Shown piece after piece: positions 1 to 10,710 of a DNA stretch of 10,710 bases. The translations under genes were made by a program, and so were the position numbers. Each line of letters opens with the position of its first letter. Positions within the stretch are counted from its first letter, which is position 1. The notes below the pieces were generated by a model. That model did not search any database, was not told where the DNA came from, and saw only the letters and a list, made by a program, of their open reading frames with translations. The stretch comes from a virus. Taxonomy: Duplodnaviria; Heunggongvirae; Uroviricota; Caudoviricetes. The stretch lies in the IMG/VR virus record IMGVR_UViG_2778261301_000001, positions 1 to 10,710 of that record, one strand, 5' to 3'.

Positions 1-77
1 GAAAAACGAGTATTTTTAGTCATCCTGTTTACCTCTTTCTCAGGAAGTTTAGTCTCCAGGATTCCCGGGGCGGTTCA
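1..77 (-). mobile_element. Left terminus (IRL plus first codons of orfA) of an IS3-family element, IS629/IS1203/IS3411-like; the element body lies off-window to the left
   Basis: Positions 1-77 are the exact reverse complement of 10634-10710. On the minus strand the sequence reads TGAACCGCCCCGGGAATCCTGGAGACTAAACTTCCTGAGAAAGAGGTAAACAGG then ATG ACT AAA AAT ACT CGT TTT (MTKNTRF), matching the IS3-family TG terminus and the recalled IS629 OrfA N-terminus. The repeat ends exactly at 77/78. Confidence 0.75.
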
Positions 78-2106
78 CTGCTTTGTCATCGATGTTTCTG
101 GCTTGAGCCAGTTTATAGACAGTGTTTGCCTGACTCTCCATCGCATCCTGCTGGGCAGTAAATGCTTTGATTTGAGTTTGAGCAGTTTCGTTAGTTGCTT
201 TTTGCGCTTCTGCCTGCGCTGCTACCATTTGCGCCTGAGCGAGAACCATTTCAGGATTTGGCTGGCTTTGTGCTGCCATTTGCGCCTGTTGAACAATCTG
301 CTGCTCTTTCTCATTGCGTGGTTTTGCAATACCAGATATCAGCAGTTGGTTTCGGTTGTACTCTTTGAAGTCATCAAGGCCTTCGCCATCGATATTGTCC
401 AGAATAATACCCTGAATTGCCGGGCGCATTGGGTCTGTTGGAAGCATAGAGCTAAGGACATTTGTCAGTACAGAAACCGTTGCATCACGTCGTGCTGTGT
501 AGCTTGGTCCAACATCAACCGTCACATCGTATCGACCGACAGAAAGGTCATTTAACGCAACAACAGCCCCTGTTTGCCTGTCAACAACCTGTGCGCTCAG
601 GACAGCGATATCATCACTTCCATCTTCGTTAACGATGCGCACTTCACGTTCTGAACCGTACACTTCACGCGCCATTGACAGCCATACTTCACCAGCGCGT
701 TTAAGACTTTTCGCCATATTGTCCAGATAGATAAACGAAGCCATATCTGCTCTGTTCATCAAGTTGTTAACCGTTTCCTGAGCAATATTACTTGGCATCT
801 GCTGCATGGCCTGACTGCCGCCTGTAACCTCCTGAATATCTGCACTGGTTTGCTGTAGTAATGCAGCCAATGCCTGATTCATAACCGCAGGCTGTGTATA
901 TCCTGCCGGGGTAGCTCCAGCGATGATGTTGCCAGATTTATCTCTCACTTCGCGCAACGGCAAGAACGCTGGTCGTTTCTTGTTGCGAGCCTCCCAGTGC
1001 TTCTCAAGTCCACGTATTTGCTCCATGCCAACTATAGGGATCTGACCTGGGTCTTGCGCTGCAGTATCAGCCAGCATTGATACCTGAAGGTTGTACAAAC
1101 GCTGTGGATCCATTGCTTTTGCAATATGTCCTTCGACACGCTCAATGTCATCAATGAACCAGCGTTTTCCATAAACCGGGATGAGGGGGATATGCTCACC
1201 AGGAATACGTCGAGGTTTCTCAAGGAAACCATCACCATCCACTACGGATACATACACACGACGGCGCTTCACTGAGCGCCTTGCCACTTCCTGAAATCCA
1301 GCTATTGCCAGTTCATCTTCAATATCTTCGACCTGATCACTGTCGTATGTTGCAATCTCTCCAGTGATTGGATGACGATAACTGATAACGTCAACAGACT
1401 CTTTACGAACTTCGTAATACTTCGCTATGTAAATAACATCTGCATCAAACCAGTCATATTCCCAACTGGTCATAGACGTTACATCCAGAGAAGCAGGAGG
1501 TTTCTTTCCGTATTCAGCCTCATATTTTTCAGGTGACAACGAATACATGCAGAACGCCCACAACGCGTCAGATTTGTCGTACTTCTTAGCGTCAGGGTCA
1601 AACCACACAGAGCGCGACGGGTCGTATATTGGTTCAATAGCAATACGCTGACGATCGTCCATGGGGTCGTATTCATTGACCAGCATCGACGTCAAACGGA
1701 AGCAACCGAAACCACCAGTAGCAGCGTCGTCAAATGCATTATCGCAAGCCTCACCGCCATCAGTTTCTTCGTAGTCAGCACGGAACAGACCATTTAATTT
1801 ATTAGCTAACTCTTCGCTTGCCTCTCTGTCACCAGGACGAAACTTAACTGTGATTCTGTTATTGCGGTATTCTGCAATGATGCGGTTAAGTTCAGTTGCT
1901 ACCTTGTTGATTTCAAACTTAGGATACTTCTCGAACTGCTCATCAAGCTTAGTTCCAGCCGCCGTTGCTCCTTCCCATTGACCTCCGGGGACACGAGCAA
2001 ACCTCGTAGCTTCAATGCACTTTTCGCGCACTTCCTGCTGTGGAGAATAGGCGCGGTCAAACCTGAGCATGATCCGCTCATGTTTTTTCTCTAATGTCTC
2101 TGCCAT
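49..2106 (-). CDS. Phage portal protein (P22/Sf6 gp1/gp3 family), 3' end truncated and fused to IS sequence
   Basis: About 685 aa from the ATG at 2106-2104 (the ORF track's TTG at 2115 is less likely). Long collinear similarity to the recalled P22 portal, e.g. FYEV..., KRRRVY, GEHIP(L/I)(I/V)PV(Y/F)G, NMRADM. The last ~9 codons (..NRPGNPGD, stop at 49-51) lie inside the IS terminus at 1-77. Confidence 0.88.
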   Translation of the reverse strand: MAETLEKKHERIMLRFDRAYSPQQEVREKCIEATRFARVPGGQWEGATAAGTKLDEQFEKYPKFEINKVATELNRIIAEYRNNRITVKFRPGDREASEELANKLNGLFRADYEETDGGEACDNAFDDAATGGFGCFRLTSMLVNEYDPMDDRQRIAIEPIYDPSRSVWFDPDAKKYDKSDALWAFCMYSLSPEKYEAEYGKKPPASLDVTSMTSWEYDWFDADVIYIAKYYEVRKESVDVISYRHPITGEIATYDSDQVEDIEDELAIAGFQEVARRSVKRRRVYVSVVDGDGFLEKPRRIPGEHIPLIPVYGKRWFIDDIERVEGHIAKAMDPQRLYNLQVSMLADTAAQDPGQIPIVGMEQIRGLEKHWEARNKKRPAFLPLREVRDKSGNIIAGATPAGYTQPAVMNQALAALLQQTSADIQEVTGGSQAMQQMPSNIAQETVNNLMNRADMASFIYLDNMAKSLKRAGEVWLSMAREVYGSEREVRIVNEDGSDDIAVLSAQVVDRQTGAVVALNDLSVGRYDVTVDVGPSYTARRDATVSVLTNVLSSMLPTDPMRPAIQGIILDNIDGEGLDDFKEYNRNQLLISGIAKPRNEKEQQIVQQAQMAAQSQPNPEMVLAQAQMVAAQAEAQKATNETAQTQIKAFTAQQDAMESQANTVYKLAQARNIDDKAVNRPGNPGD

Positions 2107-2108
2107 GT

Positions 2109-3521
2109 TTACCAACCGGAGGATGAGGGAACGTATATTTCAGTTTCTTCGCGGACCAATGCCGGGCAATGCATACACATCATCAGCGCATCAGCCAGGT
2201 TAGGAGATGGAATACCGAGCTTCTGCTTCATTTCGACCTTAGTCATTAGCTCCAGCTTCCCGTTTTTATTGAATTTGCGCTGAATCTGCGTCAGTTCTGC
2301 AAACAGCTTCTCCAGCATCTTCTCGCCTATCGCTTCTTTGTCGAAACTCAGCATGTCGTCGGGGTCTGCATACTCACCGTGAACAACCGCCCGATATGTC
2401 AGATACAGCCTGTCAGCCAGCGCGTAATAGAATTGCGCTCGCTTATTGCGAAATACATCGCCAATAGTGCGAACGTTGTCGCCCTGTACTACTTCATCAG
2501 CCCATGCTCCGGCCTGATACGGCGCATCTTCATCGAATGGCGATTCGCTGCCCTTGAACATCGTGGCGGTGATTTTCTTGCCGGAGAACGCTTCCGTTGT
2601 CTGTCTGCGTAGCCCGGCACCAACACCATCACCATCCCACAGGTAATGGTCAGCGCCGTCTTCAATCGCCAGCGAAGTAGCCCAGTCAGCACCTTCATTG
2701 ATGTCCATCAGCAGGCCTTCGGCAATGCGCTTAACTACCGAACCGTGGCGCGATGCATAACCTTTAGCATCTGGCCCTGTATCTGATGGGTCATGCGCAG
2801 AGACAACAGCGCCTTTCGCTTTCCATCCGAGTTTCTTGTGCGCATCGGTTGCAGCTTCAAGCCATTCACGTTTGATGATTGCCATATCACTTGCGCTCAC
2901 TGGCTCACCAAGCCAGATGTGACGATACAGTGTCGGATTTCTGCGTTTACACTCTTCCATCTCCAGACGGAGAACTTCAGGAAAGTGCGGGTTGTCTGTA
3001 TAGTTCACCGTCAGCAGACAAATATCATCGGGAGGATTTACAACGAATCGCTGATAGGTATCGTCGAGAATGTTCTTAGGGTTGAAGCTCACCCATATTT
3101 CGGAAAACGGCTTGCGGATGGTTGGTATCAGGATATCCCATGATTCCTTCGTTACCGCTTCCGCTTCTTCCACCCAGCAGATATCAATGCCTTCGAGCGA
3201 TTTAATCTTCGTCGGGTTGTTTTTTATGCCGTAGAACATGAATTCAGCATTCGTTCCGAGATGACGAATCATTGAACGCTGAATTTCAAACTCAGCCGAA
3301 TACCCTTCCCGCTCGATGGTGTCTTCAAGCAACCGGATTACCGAATCGCTGATGCTGTTTTGCAGTTCACGAGCGCAGAGAATACGCACAGGCTGCCGAC
3401 GCGCCGCTTCAACAAGAAGCCTCGCAATTGCCCATGACTTACCGCTACCTCGACCGCCTTTGGCGACTTTGTAGCGATGCGCCTCAATAAACGGTTCAAA
3501 GATAGGATTAATCGAGGTCAT
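2109..3521 (-). CDS. terL: Terminase large subunit (Sf6 gp2-like; ATPase plus nuclease)
   Basis: 470-aa ORF with an N-terminal Walker A motif (VAKGGRGSGKSWA) and a Walker B-like ICWVEEAE. It sits directly upstream of the portal with a 2-nt spacer, and its length and sequence match the recalled Sf6 TerL. Confidence 0.93.
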   Translation of the reverse strand: MTSINPIFEPFIEAHRYKVAKGGRGSGKSWAIARLLVEAARRQPVRILCARELQNSISDSVIRLLEDTIEREGYSAEFEIQRSMIRHLGTNAEFMFYGIKNNPTKIKSLEGIDICWVEEAEAVTKESWDILIPTIRKPFSEIWVSFNPKNILDDTYQRFVVNPPDDICLLTVNYTDNPHFPEVLRLEMEECKRRNPTLYRHIWLGEPVSASDMAIIKREWLEAATDAHKKLGWKAKGAVVSAHDPSDTGPDAKGYASRHGSVVKRIAEGLLMDINEGADWATSLAIEDGADHYLWDGDGVGAGLRRQTTEAFSGKKITATMFKGSESPFDEDAPYQAGAWADEVVQGDNVRTIGDVFRNKRAQFYYALADRLYLTYRAVVHGEYADPDDMLSFDKEAIGEKMLEKLFAELTQIQRKFNKNGKLELMTKVEMKQKLGIPSPNLADALMMCMHCPALVREETEIYVPSSSGW

Positions 3522-3943
3522 TTTCCGAATAGAGTGCTCATCGGTGATGTTTCAATCTGGATTGCGCCGCCGTCCTTACCGACAAGCTCGTTAGTTACCT
3601 TGTCGCCATACTTACGGGGATTCATTCTGGCCAGCGCCCATTTGCGGGTATCAACGCGAAGTCTTGCCTTTGCCACCTCGGCGGCATCAGGGATTACGTC
3701 GTCAGCAATTTCGAATATCTCTTCGAAAATAGAGTCGGCCCGAGTCTCTGTTGCCTTCGCGTACTGGTCACGAAACTCCTGATGTTCAGCCAGCCAGCGA
3801 AAAACTGATGTTTTGCTCGGCATTCCTGGGCGTTCGCAAACTTTGCGCAGACTCTCGCCGGAGGAAAGCAATGCGCAAATGTCATTAGCCACCTCCGGCA
3901 TATAATCAGAGGGGCGACCACCTTTCTTTTTCTCAGTCGCCAT
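3518..3943 (-). CDS. terS: Terminase small subunit (Sf6 gp1-like)
   Basis: 141-aa ORF whose TGA overlaps the terL ATG (ATGA). The N-terminus MATEKKKGGRPSDYMPEVANDICALL... matches the recalled Sf6 small terminase, and a GAAGGGA Shine-Dalgarno lies upstream. Confidence 0.85.
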   Translation of the reverse strand: MATEKKKGGRPSDYMPEVANDICALLSSGESLRKVCERPGMPSKTSVFRWLAEHQEFRDQYAKATETRADSIFEEIFEIADDVIPDAAEVAKARLRVDTRKWALARMNPRKYGDKVTNELVGKDGGAIQIETSPMSTLFGK

Positions 3944-4022
3944 ATTGATTATTTCCCTTCTGCTTGCTTATCCCATTCATCGCGGAATTTGGATGGGTTG
4001 TCGAAACCTTGAGTTGCCATGT

Positions 4023-4265
4023 TTACGCTCCGGTAGTGAACAGGTCTAACGCTTCCTTCGATTTACGCACCGCTTCGAATGTGCGGATCGTGATATCCGA
4101 ATTAGCGCCGCCTGACTGGAAGTGAATTTTAAATAGCTCAAGCTTCAGCTCGTCAGTGCCAATGAATTGAAATGCTTCTTCTGCGGCTGCGTTCTGGTTC
4201 ATGACCAGTTTGTAAATCTCTAACTGGAATTTCTGTTCTTCAGTCATGGGAATAATCTCTGCCAT
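4023..4265 (-). CDS. Hypothetical small protein (80 aa) upstream of terS
   Basis: Clean ORF with a GGAG Shine-Dalgarno 7 nt upstream of the ATG at 4265-4263, same strand and operon context as the terminase genes. No family recognised. Confidence 0.55.
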   Translation of the reverse strand: MAEIIPMTEEQKFQLEIYKLVMNQNAAAEEAFQFIGTDELKLELFKIHFQSGGANSDITIRTFEAVRKSKEALDLFTTGA

Positions 4266-4281
4266 TGTTGGCTCCGTTTAT

Positions 4282-4312
4282 CCGTTAAAAGGGATATCAG
4301 TTAAGTTATCCC
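4282..4312 (-). terminator. Candidate intrinsic terminator (weak) between the moron and the 80-aa gene
   Basis: Inverted repeat GGGATA..TATCCC at 4291-4312 (6-bp stem, 10-nt loop), followed on the minus strand by TTTTAACGG (plus 4282-4290). Confidence 0.3.
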
Positions 4313-4574
4313 GTGCAGGGTATAAGCCATTGTCGAGACCACTCATTGAATGGTCTCTGCAATAACCGATGTCTTTCCATCAGTCCGCCACCACAAAGAA
4401 TCTTTTTTGCCATAAGGCAGGAGGTTCATCTTTCAGTGGCTGCCAGTTTATTTCCCCACTTTCTGGCTTGGGTTGTTTCGCTGTACTGCCGTTAATTGGT
4501 GAGTCCGGGGATTATTTCAGTTCGTTACCAGGCATTTCTTTTAGCTCTTTCAAATGACAACGATTGAGGCTAAA

Positions 4575-4997
4575 TCACTCCCCGTGCGACCTATAGTTGT
4601 AATATTTTTGGTGCAATTTGGTTTCAAGCTCTCTATCGGCAGGAATCTTTGCAATTAGATTTAGCTTCCCACCACTCATGCGAGATATCTCTGAAATTCG
4701 TTTATTAACCCTGCGACTAAACCCTATTTTTGTTAGCCCACTATCTTCAGCATGCAGAACGTACACATATGATTTTTGCGAAGCACTGGGTGCGACTTTG
4801 TTGTAATTAATCATGTCAAACATAAAGCCTTGCTTTAGCAAAGTTTCAAAAAAGATAGAATTAACACACCCATTCCTTCTCAGCTCTGCACTTAGCTTGT
4901 CAATTTCCTCTATGATGTCGCCAGACCCCTTTCCACTTATAAGAAAATCTTGGTACATGCGACCAATTCTTGAGGTAATTTCAACAAAGTTATTCAT
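4575..4997 (-). CDS. Moron-encoded protein with a C-terminal T5orf172 / MUG113 (GIY-YIG-like) domain; ends at an in-frame TGA where the family's conserved Trp is expected
   Basis: 140 aa from the first ATG (4997-4995), with AAAGG about 10 nt upstream. The C-terminal half reads SYVYVLHAEDSGLTKIGFSRRVNKRISEISRM...ELETKLHQKYYNYRSHGE-stop-F, matching the T5orf172 pattern (YVYVL, KIG, R..EIS, E..LH, GEWF). The region is locally AT-rich compared with the flanking phage genes. The ORF track's 221-aa version begins at a TTG and is probably over-extended. Confidence 0.65.
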   Translation of the reverse strand: MNNFVEITSRIGRMYQDFLISGKGSGDIIEEIDKLSAELRRNGCVNSIFFETLLKQGFMFDMINYNKVAPSASQKSYVYVLHAEDSGLTKIGFSRRVNKRISEISRMSGGKLNLIAKIPADRELETKLHQKYYNYRSHGE

Positions 4998-5135
4998 AGC
5001 GTCTTTACCTTTTAGAAAGTGAGCCTGTCTCACAGAAAAGCCGCCCGAGAGAGGTCGCCACCTATAACGGCATTTCTCAGGCTCGCTTACTGAAAGGCTC
5101 TCGTTAATATGCGCGTGAGATGCGCTGTGAAATTC

Positions 5136-5165
5136 AGATATAAAAAGCCCCGCGAATGCGAGGCT
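5136..5165 (-). terminator. Candidate intrinsic terminator downstream of the lysis cassette
   Basis: Plus 5146-5165 AGCCCCGCGAATGCGAGGCT forms an 8-bp stem with one mismatch and a GAAT loop. On the minus strand it is followed by TTTTTATATCTG. Confidence 0.45.
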
Positions 5166-5339
5166 AAATCCTGGTATTTGTAATGAACTGGCTCTTATCT
5201 CAACGCAGCCCCTTACTGCGCGCCAGATGCTCAATATCAAGCATCAGCAATGAGATGTTTAATCTGGATTTACTCCAGAAGTGATCACCACCCTGTCTAC
5301 AGAGCCAGATGTGAAGGATGATGAGTAAAATTATCGCTA

Positions 5340-5777
5340 TCATCGAAGGCATTGCGTCCTAATGTATTCCTGCAGGTAGTTAACCTGCGCGGTTATCTTG
5401 TCGATTCCACTTCGGAGACGGTAATAATTGAGTTCAGCATCTGCTGTAAGTCCTGGGCTTTCTCCATCGCCCATGCCGCTGGCTCCGGTCGTTGACTTTG
5501 CACAGGTGGCGGCGACTTGCAGGCGCTTACGCCCAGCAGAAACATCAGCACGGAGACTTTCAATAGTCGCGTTAGCATCAGCAAGCTCCTTTGTGTATCT
5601 GGCGTCAAGTTCTGCTACATCACGTTGACGCTTCTGCATGTCAGCGATTGTGGATGTGGCCTTATCGCGCTGCTCTTTGTAGGTCATGGCGTTATCACGG
5701 TAATGATTAACAGCCCATGACAGGCTGACGATGATGCAGATAACCAGAGCGGAGATAATCGCGGTTACTCTACTCAT
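5340..5777 (-). CDS. Rz: Rz i-spanin (inner-membrane spanin subunit)
   Basis: 145 aa. The N-terminus [29 protein letters not shown] is near-identical to recalled lambda Rz (N-terminal TM segment, coiled-coil periplasmic domain). Its ATG overlaps the R stop (ATGA). Confidence 0.88.
5393..5578 (-). CDS. Rz1: Rz1 o-spanin (outer-membrane lipoprotein), embedded in the +1 frame of Rz
   Basis: Embedded ORF reading [26 protein letters not shown]...PEPAAW. It has a signal peptide with a lipobox (VSAC) and a proline-rich mature region typical of Rz1. The exact start is uncertain (Met at 5578 or a downstream Met). Confidence 0.72.
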
Positions 5778-6250
5778 ACCTCAATCTCTCTGACCGTTCC
5801 GCCTGCTTCTTTGAATTTTGCAATCAGGCTGTCAGCCTTATGCTCGAACTGACCGTAACCAGCCCCCGGCAGTGAAGCCCAGATATTGCTGCAACGGTCG
5901 ATTGCCTGACGGATATCACCGCGATCAATCATCGGCAAAGCGCCACGCTCTTTAATCTGTTGCAGTGCCACAGCGTCCTGGCTTTTCGGAGAGAAGTCTT
6001 TCAGTCCAAGCTGCTTGCGGTAGGCATCCCACCAACGGGAAAGAAGCTGATAGCGCCCGGCTGCTGTTGATTTGAGTTTTGGGTTTAGCGTGACAAGTTT
6101 GCGAGGGTGATCGGAGTAATCGGTAAATAGCTCTCCGCCTACAATGACGTCATAACCATGATTTCTGGTTTTCTGACGTCCGTTATCAGTTCCCTCTGAC
6201 CACGCCAGCATATCGAGGAACGCCTTACGTTGATTATTGATTTCCACCAT
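5774..6250 (-). CDS. R: Endolysin, lambda R-type lytic transglycosylase
   Basis: 158 aa, [51 protein letters not shown]..., essentially identical to recalled lambda R. The start overlaps the S stop as in lambda. Confidence 0.95.
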
Positions 6251-6557
6251 CTTCTACTCCGGCTTTTTTAGCAGCGAAGCGTTTGATAAGCGAACCAATC
6301 GAGTCAGTACCGATGTAGCCGATGAACACGCTCGTTATATAAGCGAGATTGCTACTTAGTCCGGCGAAGTCGAGAAGGTCACGAATGAACCAGGCGATAA
6401 TGGCGCACATCGTTGCGTCGATTACTGTTTTTGTAAACGCACCGCCATTATATCTGCCGCGAAGGTACGCCATTGCAAACGCAAGGATTGCCCCGATGCC
6501 TTGTTCCTTTGCCGCGAGAATGGCGGCTAACAGGTCATGTTTTTCTGGCATCTTCAT
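6234..6557 (-). CDS. S: Holin/antiholin, lambda S (S107/S105 dual start)
   Basis: 107 aa, [39 protein letters not shown]..., near-identical to recalled lambda S. It has the Met1-Lys2-Met3 dual-start motif (ATGAAGATG at 6557-6549). Confidence 0.95.
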
Positions 6558-6682
6558 GTCTTACCCCCAATAAGGGGATTTGCTCTATTTAATTAGGAAT
6601 AAGGTCGATTACTGATAGAACAAATCCAGGCTACTGTGTTTAGTAATCAGATTTGTTCGTGACCGATATGCACGGGCAAAAC

Positions 6683-6712
6683 GGCAGGAGGTTGTTAGCG
6701 CAACCTCATGCC
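6683..6712 (-). promoter_or_regulatory. Conserved GC-rich stem-loop in the S leader (lambda-like)
   Basis: GGCAGGAGGTTG / CAACCTCATGCC (12-bp stem, one mismatch, 6-nt loop), followed on the minus strand by GTTTTGCCCGTG. The same structure sits at the same place upstream of S in recalled lambda sequence. Function not assigned here. Confidence 0.5.
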
Positions 6713-6847
6713 ACCCGCTTTCACGAAGCCAGCCATTACGCTGGTTTTCTTTTATGCAAAGCACACCGCACCGTAGCCACAGCGGATAAGGTGATTATTT
6801 TTGTCTGTCTGGTATTTGGGTTGATGTGCTTTCAGAAAGGTCGTGAT

Positions 6848-6886
6848 TAAAACGCAAAAAGCCCCGAGCTATTAACTCAGGGCTTT
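6848..6886 (-). terminator. Promoter-proximal intrinsic terminator of the late operon (tR'-equivalent; target of Q antitermination)
   Basis: On the minus strand, GCCCUGAG-UUAAUAG-CUCGGGGC (8-bp GC-rich stem, extendable to 11 bp) is followed immediately by UUUUUGCGUUUU. It lies about 25-65 nt downstream of the predicted pR' start. Confidence 0.6.
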
Positions 6887-6905
6887 ATTTAACGAGTGCA
6901 TTTAT

Positions 6906-6948
6906 CCATCGTTTGGTCAAATTTACCCAACTTTATTCAAAAAGTCAA
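6906..6948 (-). promoter_or_regulatory. Late promoter pR' with Q-utilisation (qut) region
   Basis: The minus strand reads TTGACT (plus 6943-6948), a 17-bp spacer, TAAATT (plus 6920-6925), then TTGACCAAACGATGG. This is nearly identical to recalled lambda pR' (TTGACTTATTGAATAAAATTGGGTAAATTTGACTCAACGATGG), including the pause-inducing AACGAT element. Predicted +1 is near 6912. Confidence 0.75.
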
Positions 6949-6990
6949 TATCATGCCGTTAATATGTTGCCATCCGTGGCAATCATGCTG

Positions 6991-7614
6991 CTAACGTGTG
7001 ACCGCATTCAAAATGTTGTCTGCGATTGACTCTTCTTTGTGGCATTGCACCACCAGAGCGTCATACAGCGGCTTAACAGTGCGTGACCAGGTGGGTTGAG
7101 TAAGGTTTGGGATTAGCATCGTTACAGCGCGATATGCGGCGCTTGCTGGCATCCTTGAATAACCGACGCCTTTGCATCTTCCGCATTCTTTCTCAACAAC
7201 TCTCCCCCACTGCTCTGTTTTTGCTATATCAACCGCACGGCCTGTACCGTGGCAATCTCTGCATCTTGCGCCCGGCGTCGCGGCACTACGGCAATAATCC
7301 GCATAAGCGAATGTTGCGAGCACTTGCAGTACCTTAGCCTTAGTATTTCCTTCGAGCTTTGCCACACCACGGTATTTCCCCGATACCTTGTGTGCAAATT
7401 GCATCAGATAGTTGATAGCCTTTTGTTTGTCGTTCTGGCTGAGTTCGTGCTTACCACAGAATGCAGCCATTCCGAATCCGGCTTGTGATTGCGCCATCCC
7501 CATAGCAGCCATCACATCAGTACCGGAAAGAGAGTCAGAAGCCGTAGCCCGTGGTGAGTCGCTCATCATCGGGCTTTTTGGCGAATGAAATTTAGCTACG
7601 CTTTCGAGTCTCAT
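6991..7614 (-). CDS. Q: Late-gene antiterminator Q (lambda-type)
   Basis: 207 aa, MRLESVAKFHSPKSPMMSDSPRATASDSLSG..., essentially identical to recalled lambda Q, with a zinc-binding CRDCHGTG...CGRCKG region. It sits immediately upstream of pR'. Confidence 0.95.
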   Translation of the reverse strand: MRLESVAKFHSPKSPMMSDSPRATASDSLSGTDVMAAMGMAQSQAGFGMAAFCGKHELSQNDKQKAINYLMQFAHKVSGKYRGVAKLEGNTKAKVLQVLATFAYADYCRSAATPGARCRDCHGTGRAVDIAKTEQWGRVVEKECGRCKGVGYSRMPASAAYRAVTMLIPNLTQPTWSRTVKPLYDALVVQCHKEESIADNILNAVTR

Positions 7615-7799
7615 GGCCTTCCCCTTTTGCCCTGTTTGACCATCAGGACGCCGTTAACTATTACGTGACGCTCGCCTTTGCTGTCTCGGTTGTACTTGAG
7701 CACTGTTCCTCTTGCGCAGGAAAGCATCCTCGCCACTTCGGTCTGATTGCCTCGTGTCTGGATAAGAAGCTCTGGTATCGTTTGAATTGTGGCGTTCAT
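7611..7799 (-). CDS. ninH: NinH-like small DNA-binding protein
   Basis: 62 aa, ..TIPELLIQTRGNQTEVARMLSCARGTVLKY.. resembles recalled lambda NinH (..TIPDMLVETYGNQTEVARRLKCSRGTVRKY..). ATGA overlaps with both the Q start and the rusA stop. Confidence 0.78.
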   Translation of the reverse strand: MNATIQTIPELLIQTRGNQTEVARMLSCARGTVLKYNRDSKGERHVIVNGVLMVKQGKRGRP

Positions 7800-8158
7800 A
7801 CGTTCTCCAGTTCGGTGATTTTTATTCCAAGCCTTCCGCCTGGTACTTTCACACCACGAATTACGCGAATGTCATCGAATTGCTCGTCGTCTTCCGCAAA
7901 TCCGGCGTGGATAAGTGAGTCGAGTAAACCTTTCAGGATGTTATCGAGGTCGCGGCGGCGGGAGTCTGGAACGTCTGCGATGACTTTGATGCGGAGTCGT
8001 GATTTGGTGAAAATGTCTAACTTGAGTTGGCGGATGATTTGCTGAACGTCTTTTCGGTATTTCTGACCTTTATCGCTGATGTAGTATTGGCTTCCCCGTC
8101 TTCGCCAGTAGGTATTCACCGACGGCGGGTAAGGAAGCACAAACTGATATTCGTTCAT
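7796..8158 (-). CDS. rusA: RusA-family Holliday junction resolvase
   Basis: 120 aa with LPYPPSVNTYWRRRG, DVPDSRRRDLDNILKGLLDSL and GGRLGIKITE, matching the conserved blocks of E. coli RusA (LPWPPSNNRYY..., PDRRRRDLDNLQK). Confidence 0.85.
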   Translation of the reverse strand: MNEYQFVLPYPPSVNTYWRRRGSQYYISDKGQKYRKDVQQIIRQLKLDIFTKSRLRIKVIADVPDSRRRDLDNILKGLLDSLIHAGFAEDDEQFDDIRVIRGVKVPGGRLGIKITELENV

Positions 8159-8445
8159 GGCTTAATCTTCCCCTCCTTCAGCAGTATCGCCTGCGTCCTG
8201 ATCACGCCTTCCAGGTGGTAAAGTCTGGCGTCTTTGTTGTCGAGGTTATGGGTGCGTCGGTCGATTTCATCGTGACACGCGCTACAAGCCCATGCGCCGA
8301 TCAGGTCGTCAGGCTTCATTCCCGTTCCGCAAATTCCAGCCATCCGGTAATGTGCCAGAACTGTAGTTTCAGGATTACCATTGCATACGCCGTAAATACG
8401 TACCTGGCATTCTCTGCCGCGCGCTTCTTTGCGTAGGTTAACCAT
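8155..8445 (-). CDS. YbcO-like protein (DUF1364, putative nuclease), nin region
   Basis: 96 aa, LRKEARGRECQVRIYGVCNGNPETTVLAHYR...ACSACHDEIDRRTH, closely resembling recalled DLP12 YbcO. Cys/His-rich motifs present. Confidence 0.75.
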   Translation of the reverse strand: MVNLRKEARGRECQVRIYGVCNGNPETTVLAHYRMAGICGTGMKPDDLIGAWACSACHDEIDRRTHNLDNKDARLYHLEGVIRTQAILLKEGKIKP

Positions 8446-9167
8446 TAAGCAGCCTCTCCTGTTACTTTCAGCATTCCGTTATCGAGCAGCTTTCTGGTCA
8501 GCCACTGTTGACCACGCCCGGTGATTTTTGTGGTGAACGATATCTGTATTCCGTGATTTGTGTTGACCGCTGTTTCTTTCACTGTGAAATAGCCGCGATC
8601 CATATATTCCTGCATTGGCACATTGCGCCGGGAACCTGAAGCAATAAGGATTTTGTGATCGCGCATCCACGCAAACAGTTTGTTTGGACCAATTCCAACA
8701 ACCTTTGCAAAGTTTCCAATCAAAATTCCGCTGGCCTCGCCAACGCGATCGGCAAACTCAACTTTAGGTGCGGCAATTGCGAGCTGGTTTTCCAGTTGCA
8801 TTTTCTGCTCAGCAAGATCAGCAGCAAGGCGCAACGCTTCTGGTAACGTTTTGGGGATATTAACCGCAGCTTCTTCAAGCTCTCGCCAACGGTCAACAAG
8901 ACGAGCGGTGAATTCCGGCGACAATTGGGCGACGACAATAATGCTGTCTCGCTTACCTTGTTCGCCTTCGAAGACATAAGCCTCGACACTACGGCGCAGC
9001 CCTAAGTTATTGATTTTTTCGAAAACCTGCAATGCAGGAAGTTGAATAACTCCAGATTTAGCCAGGCGCTCTATTGATATTTTTACGTTATCTGGACGAC
9101 TTCCCACCAACTCAGCGATTTCAATGCTTGTCATTTTGATGGCATTGCCATTTATTAACTCATTCAT
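8445..9167 (-). CDS. Rha-family phage regulatory protein with C-terminal KilA-C/ANT domain (putative antirepressor, Roi-like)
   Basis: 240 aa. The N-terminus (MTSIEIAELVGSRPDNVKISIERL) is Rha-like and the C-terminus (GNFAKVVGIGPNKLFAWMRDHKIL...VPMQEYMDRGYF) is KilAC-like. The domain assignment is from recalled Pfam patterns, not a search. Confidence 0.7.
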   Translation of the reverse strand: MNELINGNAIKMTSIEIAELVGSRPDNVKISIERLAKSGVIQLPALQVFEKINNLGLRRSVEAYVFEGEQGKRDSIIVVAQLSPEFTARLVDRWRELEEAAVNIPKTLPEALRLAADLAEQKMQLENQLAIAAPKVEFADRVGEASGILIGNFAKVVGIGPNKLFAWMRDHKILIASGSRRNVPMQEYMDRGYFTVKETAVNTNHGIQISFTTKITGRGQQWLTRKLLDNGMLKVTGEAA

Positions 9168-9336
9168 CGTCTTCTTCCTCGTACATTGAGCTATTCGGAT
9201 CGCTCATCAGTTCTGCGCAGCAATCGGAGCACACGTGAACTTCCAGCACATGCAGCTTCTGACCGCAGTTAGCGCACGTTAAAGCTCGCTCGACGCTTTC
9301 TTTCTGGTATTGAATGGATTGGGATGGGCTAAGCAT
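9160..9336 (-). CDS. ninF: NinF-like small zinc-ribbon protein
   Basis: 58-aa ORF below the ORF track's size cutoff: [58 protein letters not shown], with CxxC...C..CC. Its ATG overlaps the upstream stop (TAATG) and its TGA overlaps the Rha ATG in ATGAATGA. Resembles recalled lambda NinF. Confidence 0.7.
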   Translation of the reverse strand: MLSPSQSIQYQKESVERALTCANCGQKLHVLEVHVCSDCCAELMSDPNSSMYEEEDDE

Positions 9337-9701
9337 TATTGGATTCTCTGCATCATGAGAAAGACATTCATGGCGGCGCGGAGGGGATTTTCATGTATAG
9401 CTCGCTTAGATTTACAGTAGGCCACACCGCGTGCACCCCACTCGTCTTCATCGAGATTGATAATGCTAATCCTGTATTTTTCAATAATCGGCCATGCGTC
9501 TGCTGGGTTTGCGCATGGGTTAAAGGATCCGCGCTCAACTTCTACTTCAACTGCGTCTCCGTTTACAATGTCTCCCTCAAATGAGACAAACACCATATCG
9601 CCATTCTCACCTTCTTTGTAATCCGGTGATCCGTTATGAATGGCTTCGAATACCGCCACGTTAATTTCAAAATCACTTAACTGTGAATAATCCATTGTCA
9701 T
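9336..9701 (-). CDS. nin-region protein, NinX-like (DUF2591-type); family identity uncertain
   Basis: 121 aa from the ATG at 9701 ([22 protein letters not shown]...), which overlaps the NinE TGA as ATGA. The ORF track's 133-aa version starts upstream inside ninE. Gene is well supported by operon coupling; the NinX name is a tentative recollection. Confidence 0.6.
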
Positions 9702-9874
9702 TTCCTCGCACGATGTCTTAGCCACCGGATATCCCACAGGTGAGCCGTGTAGTTGAAGGTTTTTACATCAGATTCTTTTGGGATTGGCTTGCGTTTATTT
9801 CTGGAGCGTTTCGTTGGAAGGTATTTGCAGTTTTCGCAGATGATGTCGGTGAAACTTCGTCGCTGTCGCCTCAT
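9698..9874 (-). CDS. ninE: NinE-like protein
   Basis: 58-aa ORF not in the ORF track: [58 protein letters not shown], closely resembling recalled lambda NinE. ATGA overlap with the ninB stop. Confidence 0.75.
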
Positions 9875-10281
9875 TCGTACCTCCTGTCGGTAAATCTGAC
9901 ACCCTGACCAATAGCCCAGGCTGTTGTGTACTCAATCAGACTTGCCATACGCTTCACACTCATCTGCGCGCTGCTTTCGCGAATGTTGACGTATTCGCCT
10001 TCAAGCCCGGGCAAAACATCAGCTTCCTGCTTTGTTGCCACTGCATGACCGCTGATCAACAAAACCTTCCATTGTTCTGGTTTTAACCATTTATCGCGCC
10101 ACTGAACTTGCCTAGCGATATCCGCCAGCATCGCGTGAAATTTTGCGTTCTGGTCAAGGTTGCGCTTGTAGTCAGTAATGCGGATGGTGACTGGCTTGTC
10201 TTTATCGAGTGGTGTTGCGAGGATGGCGTTGATTGCGGCTTGCTGTTGTTGCTTAGTTCGGAGGAAGATTGTTTGCTTCAT
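9871..10281 (-). CDS. ninB: NinB-family protein (Orf-like recombination mediator)
   Basis: 136 aa from the internal ATG at 10281 ([20 protein letters not shown]...), with AAGGAG 6 nt upstream. Resembles recalled lambda NinB (LDQN(R/A)K, QV.W...WL..E.WK). The ORF track's upstream extension is unlikely. Confidence 0.8.
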
Positions 10282-10283
10282 CG

Positions 10284-10472
10284 TTACTCCTTCACTTTGA
10301 CTCCGGCGGTGCGAACTGCGGCCATCCAAGCCCTGTATCTCTTGTTTATTTCAACTCGTTTATACACAATCACGCCCAAAATATTCTTGCTTCTCATTTG
10401 TCGAATGAAGCAAGCGGAGACACCAAGTTCATCAGCGCACCAATCTTCAAATCTCTCTAAGTTATCGTCCAT
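10284..10472 (-). CDS. Small hypothetical protein, possible HTH regulator (Ren/NinA position)
   Basis: 62 aa from the first ATG (10472): MDDNLERFEDWCADELGVSACFIRQMRSKNILGV... Its stop lies within the ninB ribosome-binding site and the upstream stop is 1 nt from its ATG. Family not recognised. Confidence 0.45.
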   Translation of the reverse strand: MDDNLERFEDWCADELGVSACFIRQMRSKNILGVIVYKRVEINKRYRAWMAAVRTAGVKVKE

Positions 10473-10473
10473 A

Positions 10474-10633
10474 TCAATCACCGTTAATCGTTTCACTCAC
10501 GAATCTGACAAAACCAGCCATGTTTATTTGCATGAGTTTTTTCAACACCTTGTCTCGTCGGCTACGTTTTGGTTTTGGCCTGTGGTTGAATCTTTCACAA
10601 ACTGGAAGGCTTGATGATTTCCAGTACCTATTA
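10474..10633 (-). pseudogene. 3' remnant (51 codons) of a phage gene interrupted by the right-hand IS insertion
   Basis: The minus-strand frame is open from the IS junction (10633) to a TGA at 10474-10476: ..NRYWKSSSLPVCERFNHRPKPKRSRRDKVLKKLMQINMAGFVRFVSETINGD*. There is no upstream start within phage DNA, and the stop is 1 nt from the next gene's ATG. The parent gene is unknown (replication-region position). Confidence 0.4.
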
Positions 10634-10710
10634 TGAACCGCCCCGGGAATCCTGGAGACTAAACTTCCTGAGAAAGAGGTAAACAGGATGACTAAAAATA
10701 CTCGTTTTTC
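10634..10710 (+). mobile_element. Left terminus (IRL plus first codons of orfA) of a second IS629-like IS3-family copy, inverted relative to the copy at 1-77; body off-window to the right
   Basis: TGAACCGCCCCGGGAATCCTGGAGACTAAACTTCCTGAGAAAGAGGTAAACAGG then ATGACTAAAAATACTCGTTTTTC (orfA start at 10688). Exact reverse complement of 1-77. Confidence 0.75.

Follow-up and report, generated by a model that had tools for sequence, protein, structure and literature searches.

Introduction

Late gene expression in lambdoid phages is governed by antitermination cassettes, which have been defined as the combination of a Q gene, the promoter PR', a sigma-dependent pause element, a terminator and the downstream genes (Yin et al. 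2022, PMC9388147). The 5' end of the RNA is anticipated to have passed through the Q torus by a transcript length of about 15–16 nt (PMC9388147). The lambda Q protein and its P22 counterpart gp23 are interchangeable (PMC8022706), and the RefSeq record of P22 annotates the promoter P late/PR' at 37852–37880, qut at 37871–37900, the late RNA start (5' nucleotide) at 37887 and, at 37917–37945, a feature described as 't late or tR'; antiterminated by gene 23 protein action to allow full late transcription'.

Several of these promoters are also known as sources of small transcripts. Short antitermination-regulated RNAs have been reported for the late promoters of phages 21, phi80 and 82 (PMC7547250), and a passage of the same source attributes such an RNA of the P22 late promoter to Roberts et al. 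1976. In lambda, the late operon yields the 6S RNA (194 nt, with a processed form of 121 nt) and the ~63-nt LPR2, both of which are reported to be Hfq-bound (10.1101/2024.10.31.621285), and in Shiga-toxin phages the antiterminated late promoter constitutively produces StxS, a short RNA ended at tR' (PMC7547250). Here, we compare with these systems the late control region of a 10,710-nt viral sequence (IMG/VR record IMGVR_UViG_2778261301_000001, positions 1–10,710), the whole of which is referred to as the window.

Gene Order and Elements of the Late Control Region

The best match to the whole window among phage records was HK620 (coverage 83%, identity 95.8%), which indicates that the window derives from an E. 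coli lambdoid phage or prophage resembling HK620 and P22. All of its genes are encoded on the minus strand, with Q, S, R and the other late genes running from right to left in the order NinB, NinX, an Ant/Rha-type regulator, RusA, NinH, Q, a 433-nt intergenic interval, S, R and Rz; beyond Rz follow a T5orf172/GIY-YIG-like ORF, an Sf6-type small terminase, the large terminase and a P22-type portal. The late genes S, R, Rz, the terminase subunits and the portal are located directly downstream of the cassette on the same strand, and the end of the Q ORF is separated from the -35 element by 42 nt. The elements of the region are the following:

6991–7614, minus strand: Q antiterminator gene of the lambda family, 207 aa (ORF list; product identical to lambda Q at 206 of 207 residues)
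6920–6948, minus strand: putative late promoter pR', with -35 TTGACT (6948–6943), a 17-nt spacer (6942–6926) and -10 TAAATT (6925–6920) (consensus scan)
6942–6926, minus strand: spacer with the putative Q-binding element TTTTGAATAAAGTTGGG, matching P22 fully and lambda at 15 of 17 positions
6891–6913, minus strand: predicted late transcript start, +1 = 6913, and the block shared with lambda, which ends at +23 (alignment to lambda and P22)
6913–6908, minus strand: AACGAT, putative sigma-dependent pause element, +1 to +6 (alignment to lambda and P22)
6848–6886, minus strand: predicted intrinsic terminator tR', the P22 't late' (terminator scan, folding, homology to P22 and Emek)
6886–6849, minus strand: parts of tR', namely the hairpin (6886–6858), its G-C core (6883–6861), a U-run (6860–6856), GCG and UUUU (6852–6849)
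6729–6890, minus strand: allele-specific interior, 162 nt, including tR' (ungapped comparison from both ends and alignment)
6558–6728, minus strand: lambda-shared block before S, 171 nt, with a second hairpin (6712–6683) and the S ribosome-binding region (identity 169/171)
6234–6557, minus strand: S holin gene with dual start ATGAAGATG, the first late gene (ORF list; annotated as holin in homologous records)
5774–6250, minus strand: R, located 3' of S
5340–5777, minus strand: Rz (Pfam family match)

Three further features were observed in and around these elements. The ORF that separates the lysis genes from that of the small terminase (4575–5240, minus strand) encodes 221 aa with a T5orf172/MUG113 (GIY-YIG-like) domain and occupies a position typical of a moron or homing-endonuclease-like insert. 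A 51-aa ORF with a GTG start (6609–6764, minus strand) is annotated as 'hypothetical protein' in HK140, a label also listed under the matches to this region in mEp234, Sf101 and ECP1; this ORF crosses the mosaic junction described below, so that its N-terminus would differ in lambda, and it is probably not a real gene. On the plus strand, antisense within Q, a CII-box-like repeat (TTGCGAGCACTTGC) is found at 7314–7327, a position matching that of the C1-activated antisense promoter Pa23 annotated in gene 23 of P22, with the pattern itself being no more frequent than expected by chance (two found vs 1.05 expected). The lambda counterpart of Pa23 is paQ.

Promoter, Start Site and Pause Element

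A preliminary description of this DNA had regarded Q as lambda-type and the promoter and qut region as nearly identical to lambda through about +20, and both views agree with the comparison made here. The two Q proteins are 99% identical (206/207), and the 100 nt located 3' of the Q stop codon (6990–6891, reaching +23) are identical to lambda at 92 positions, with both pR' hexamers and AACGAT unchanged. The promoter spacer exhibits no difference from P22 and two from lambda; within +1 to +23, the differences from lambda fall at +9, +11, +15 and +17.

By homology, the Q-binding element would be located between the -35 and -10 hexamers, in a stretch whose counterparts are marked as P late/PR' and qut in the P22 and HK140 records. 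The consensus promoter match taken by itself was no better than chance (one found in the region vs 1.2 expected), and the case for pR' therefore rests on the homology with lambda and P22. This same homology supports a predicted +1 at 6913, since the AACGATGG motif was observed at an equal offset in the window and in lambda, which places +1 at window position 6913 and at lambda position 44587. The AACGAT element occurs in the same register in the window, lambda and P22. By analogy with lambda, the polymerase would pause at +16/+17 (6898/6897); as the +17 base is A in the window and G in lambda, the exact position of the pause could differ from that of lambda.

A Predicted Promoter-Proximal Terminator Shared with P22

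The strong hairpin with a U-tract that the preliminary description had reported near the start site was recovered on the minus strand at +28 to +56 (6886–6858). The hairpin (AAAGCCCUGAGUU-AAU-AGCUCGGGGCUUU) comprises 13 pairs, six of them G-C, and a 3-nt loop, and its predicted folding energy of -19.1 kcal/mol corresponds to a z-score of -5.5, with 0 of 200 shuffles being as stable. Directly 3' of the G-C part of the stem lies UUUUUGCGUUUU, the first three U of which are paired to the AAA at the stem base; the U-tract is interrupted, five U being followed by GCG. Judged by these features, the hairpin and U-tract would comprise an intrinsic terminator of canonical type, extending from about +28 to +65, and the late transcript would thus encounter its first terminator very early, in place of the 194-nt 6S unit of lambda, as had been proposed.

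The conservation of the stem adds little to this assignment. In a covariation test on 18 distinct leader variants, 96.6% of the cells were paired and no pair had changed on both sides, a result that carries little weight because the known copies average 93% identity; stem conservation alone does not prove structural constraint. A hairpin is likewise formed on folding the lambda leader, at about +26 to +59; it has a z-score of -1.0, is no more stable than shuffled sequences and, lacking a U-tract, is not a terminator. The window thus carries a genuine natural variant, with lambda having no such terminator at the same distance. The simple terminator scan misses lambda's own tR', and for this reason its negative results are not informative.

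The counterpart of this terminator is found in P22, where the annotated feature spans +31 to +59, exactly as does the equivalent stretch of the window (6883–6855). P22 resembles the window in the hexamers, the spacer, the position of +1 and the leader from +1 to +23, with two bases differing just upstream of +1. The stems are the same, and the hairpins differ only in the loop and the adjoining upper stem (UUAAUAG in the window vs UUUAACCG in P22). Past the terminator, the interiors of P22 and the window are related, with that of P22 having diverged. P22 carries gene 13 instead of the lambda S holin gene, and the 171 nt before S in the window are near-identical to lambda, unlike the corresponding P22 sequence. 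Beyond P22, the Q-to-S interval is 94–99.6% identical over its full length in Gally, HK544, HK140, HK106, mEp234, ECP1, Sf101, HK022, HK97 and others; the HK022 stem has a U-U mismatch where the window has a U-G pair.

The feature is therefore one that is already known, namely a P22-type late control region as annotated in P22. The novelty implied by the preliminary description is accordingly not sustained, as this is the standard P22/HK022/HK97 allele and its hairpin is annotated in P22 as the late terminator. The finding adds no new biology; it amounts to recovering the P22-type late terminator once more, in an E. coli phage similar to HK620.

Substitution Rather than Deletion Relative to Lambda

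From the Q stop to the S start, the interval measures 433 nt in the window and 676 nt in lambda, a difference of 243 nt which bears out the earlier observation of a much shorter interval. The lambda-like character ascribed to the last ~160 bp before S was likewise confirmed, the last 171 nt located 5' of the S start codon (6728–6558) being identical to lambda at 169 positions; the resemblance extends to the S gene itself. Between this block and the block ending at +23, the interiors comprise 162 nt in the window and 405 nt in lambda, and aligning the pR'-to-S interval revealed 1–3 matches per 10 nt. The lambda interior consists of the rest of the 6S RNA, tR' and the LPR2 region, and in the window no similarity to the lambda 6S unit was found past +23 (up to +194, including the tR' hairpin). 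The 6S body, the tR' hairpin and the LPR2 region of lambda are hence missing from the window, and the lack of relationship between the interiors indicates a substitution of the lambda sequence, contrary to the 'deletion' that had been suggested. A deletion of lambda sequence as the origin of the short interval was ruled out on this basis.

We also considered a narrower form of this explanation, in which the window would be a recent deletion derivative of lambda that lost most of its 6S unit by accident and thus would not represent a distinct allele. The length difference of 243 nt and the MAFFT alignment, which places the window and lambda terminators in the same columns, could be read in this way. 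Nonetheless, the unrelated interiors argue strongly against it, as do the terminator hairpins, which differ in both sequence and architecture, the commonness of the allele, which is shared by P22, HK022, HK97, HK620, many others and 330 E. coli genomes (see below), and the four fixed differences between +9 and +17, which are strictly tied to the leader type. Such an accidental derivation is almost certainly wrong, and the substituted interior is treated below as an allele in its own right. This allele departs from lambda at two positions of the promoter spacer and at four within +9 to +17, and its terminator hairpin ends at +56, for a predicted RNA of ~60 nt, where the first terminator of lambda ends a 194-nt RNA; the same mechanism is expected in both.

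Two additional hairpins occur in the region of the junction with the lambda-like block before S. The preliminary description had counted a GGCAGGAGG hairpin before S among the lambda-like features. The hairpin is indeed present (6712–6683, followed by GUUUUG; -25.6 kcal/mol), but with one mismatch in the window, where it reads GGCAUGAGG...CCUCCUGCC on the transcribed strand, the lambda copy being perfect. The whole element (6677–6712, minus strand; GGCAUGAGGUUG...CAACCUCCUGCC, then GUUUUG), in which the Emek base differs at the mismatch position, could serve as a second, weak terminator or form an RNA structure in the leader of S. A hairpin resembling a terminator (GAAGCCAGCCATTACGCTGG, with TTTTCTTTT after it) was observed at 6725–6748 on the plus strand, in antisense orientation to the late operon, exactly where the allele-specific interior meets the lambda-like block before S. 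No sigma-70-like promoter was found on the plus strand within 6400–6725. The element is absent from lambda; P22 and a third, diverged type of interior retain it, with other stem and loop letters and other flanks.

Distribution and Mosaic Junctions of the Two Leader Alleles

In a survey of 50,697 phage records, the promoter/Q-end segment was detected in 114, the leader and interior of the window over at least 80% of their length in 41, and the lambda 6S leader in about 21–27, many of which are lambda derivatives; among the same records, the similarity of HK620 and HK633 is confined to the terminator. When viral contigs were scanned for the promoter core pattern GGGTAAATTTGACNNAACGATGG, at least 119 loci were retrieved, 117 of which had enough downstream sequence to be classified. 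Among the matches listed, exactly two leader types were observed in these 117 contigs, 61 being short and 56 of the lambda 6S type, and the short and lambda leaders were mutually exclusive in 124 of 124 classified loci (117 viral contigs). Of 5,426 complete E. coli genomes, 330 contained the short leader and 416 the lambda 6S body. Altogether, the short allele is roughly as common as lambda's own 194-nt form, and textbook lambda displays only one of the two leader–terminator alleles that circulate with the lambda-type Q/qut module.

The two alleles also differ in how tightly neighboring variation is linked to them. The promoter-spacer variants TTTTGAATAAAG and TATTGAATAAAA were each found with both leader types, whereas the four differences between +9 and +17 were strictly tied to the leader type in the classified loci among the matches listed. 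Segment maps revealed mosaic junctions at +58, +64 or +71 for the short allele, with a further class ending at +106, and at +195 or +219–221 for the lambda allele. The location of these junctions just past either terminator indicates that the two leader–terminator units behave as exchangeable end pieces of the Q cassette.

Four viral contigs (L013, L099, L107 and L113) join, in the first ~110 nt after +1, the short P22-type terminator directly to a short stretch of the sequence that follows tR' in lambda (...GCACAACAGGTAAGAGCATT...), and these natural recombinants indicate that the two terminators have been swapped at equivalent positions. Regarding the hosts, a scan of species-representative genomes gave two matches for the allele, which is uninformative on host range because each species is represented by one genome. 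The enterobacterial short leader was also found, as an exact copy, on a 10-kb contig labeled as a Bacillota MAG (JAEZIN010000021.1; L126, 2891–2925), which is most likely a binning error.

Annotation of the Hairpin in Related Phages

The annotators of related phages are not unanimous about this hairpin. The Emek record annotates it as a rho-independent terminator, in agreement with P22; the records of HK022, HK97, HK140, the mEp-series, Sf101 and Gally annotate pR' and qut by lambda similarity and mostly leave the terminator unannotated. In the HK620 RefSeq record (NC_002730), the tR' hairpin (15610–15652; 1013–1055 of the extracted locus L005) is labeled 'qut; putative Q-utilization site', with a 'late transcription terminator tQ' placed about 650 nt downstream, which conflicts with the P22 annotation.

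Following the HK620 labels, the hairpin could be viewed as part of the Q-utilization site, or as an element of RNA stability, in which case the Q-controlled terminator proper would be located further downstream, and the second hairpin with its GUUUUG before S (6712–6677) might be cited in favor of such an arrangement. Yet the promoter-proximal hairpin displays all the features of an intrinsic terminator and is called the terminator in the P22 and Emek records, and the mosaic junctions fall immediately 3' of it, as they do with lambda tR'. The Q-binding and pause elements of lambda are located upstream of +20 and are complete without the hairpin; moreover, lambda Q acts on a leader that lacks it, so that the hairpin is not required for Q use. 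The second hairpin, in turn, is followed by only four U and contains a stem mismatch in the window. We consider this arrangement very improbable, and the assignment of the hairpin as a part of qut was rejected given that lambda Q works without it and that all known qut elements lie upstream of +20. As the terminator is unannotated in many records (HK97, HK022, mEp phages) and 'qut' in HK620, its annotation could be harmonised.

A Probable Q-Dependent Late Switch

With the hairpin assigned as tR', the region very probably constitutes the standard Q-dependent late-gene switch of the lambda family, in its P22/HK022/HK97 allele. The constituents of a Q cassette were all found in the sequence, comprising the Q gene, pR' with its Q-binding element, AACGAT and an intrinsic terminator before the late genes. 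The parts of this cassette, their order and their spacing, the homology to the P22 unit and the two interchangeable leader alleles are direct observations; the position of the pause, termination without Q and read-through with Q are extrapolated from lambda and P22 biology.

In this switch, RNA polymerase would start constitutively at pR' (+1 = 6913) and would pause at about +16/+17, owing to the sigma-dependent AACGAT element. In the absence of Q, it would be expected to stop at the +28 to +56 hairpin terminator and to release an RNA of about 60 nt (58–64). Once accumulated, Q would bind between -35 and -10 and load onto the paused polymerase, after which Q together with NusA would narrow the RNA exit channel such that the terminator hairpin could not form, and transcription would proceed into S, R, Rz, the terminase and the portal. 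The spacing is compatible with Q loading at the +16/+17 pause, since the hairpin sequence, beginning at +28, would be made after the 5' end has been threaded.

A Possible Role of the Short Leader RNA

In addition to the switch, the ~60-nt pR' leader might act in lysogens as a trans-acting, Hfq-binding small RNA, a role that we regard as unlikely. Several observations are in line with it. The pR' promoter is constitutive and lysogens of related phages make its short product (PMC7547250), and in lambda the 6S and LPR2 RNAs have been reported as Hfq-bound with few targets (bioRxiv 10.1101/2024.10.31.621285). Within the leader, the A/U-rich single-stranded stretch UUAAAUAAA precedes the terminator hairpin and a U tail, and the letters from +9 to +17 are strictly tied to the leader type even as the promoter-spacer variants mix with both. 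Weighing against such a role, the U tail has merely five U before GCG, and the leader outside the hairpin amounts to about 27 nt, which are mostly constrained by the pause and Q-loading functions. An Rfam scan of 6400–7100 at a permissive threshold gave no match at or above any gathering score, the best matches being generic terminators at 15–18.5 bits (cut-offs of 37–90 bits), and full-text literature searches for the hairpin and leader sequences found no paper with them.

StxS provides a precedent in kind, but it belongs to another Q family and has another sequence. It is also cut from a longer precursor and has demonstrated Hfq binding and known targets (PMC7547250).

The two alleles would nevertheless differ in the small RNAs that they supply. 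When the northern probe for LPR2 (supplement, bioRxiv 10.1101/2024.10.31.621285) was compared by eye with our alignment, it fell in lambda sequence just past tR', inside the 405-nt interior. As LPR2 and the 6S body lie within this lambda-specific interior, phages with the short allele lack these two RNAs, reported as Hfq-bound, and would make a different short RNA, possibly with a function of its own. That the leader is a functional trans-acting (Hfq-dependent) RNA in lysogens, and that the two alleles give different regulatory RNAs, is a combined proposal we hold to be quite unlikely; if true, lysogens would obtain this leader RNA with one allele, and lambda 6S and LPR2 with the other.
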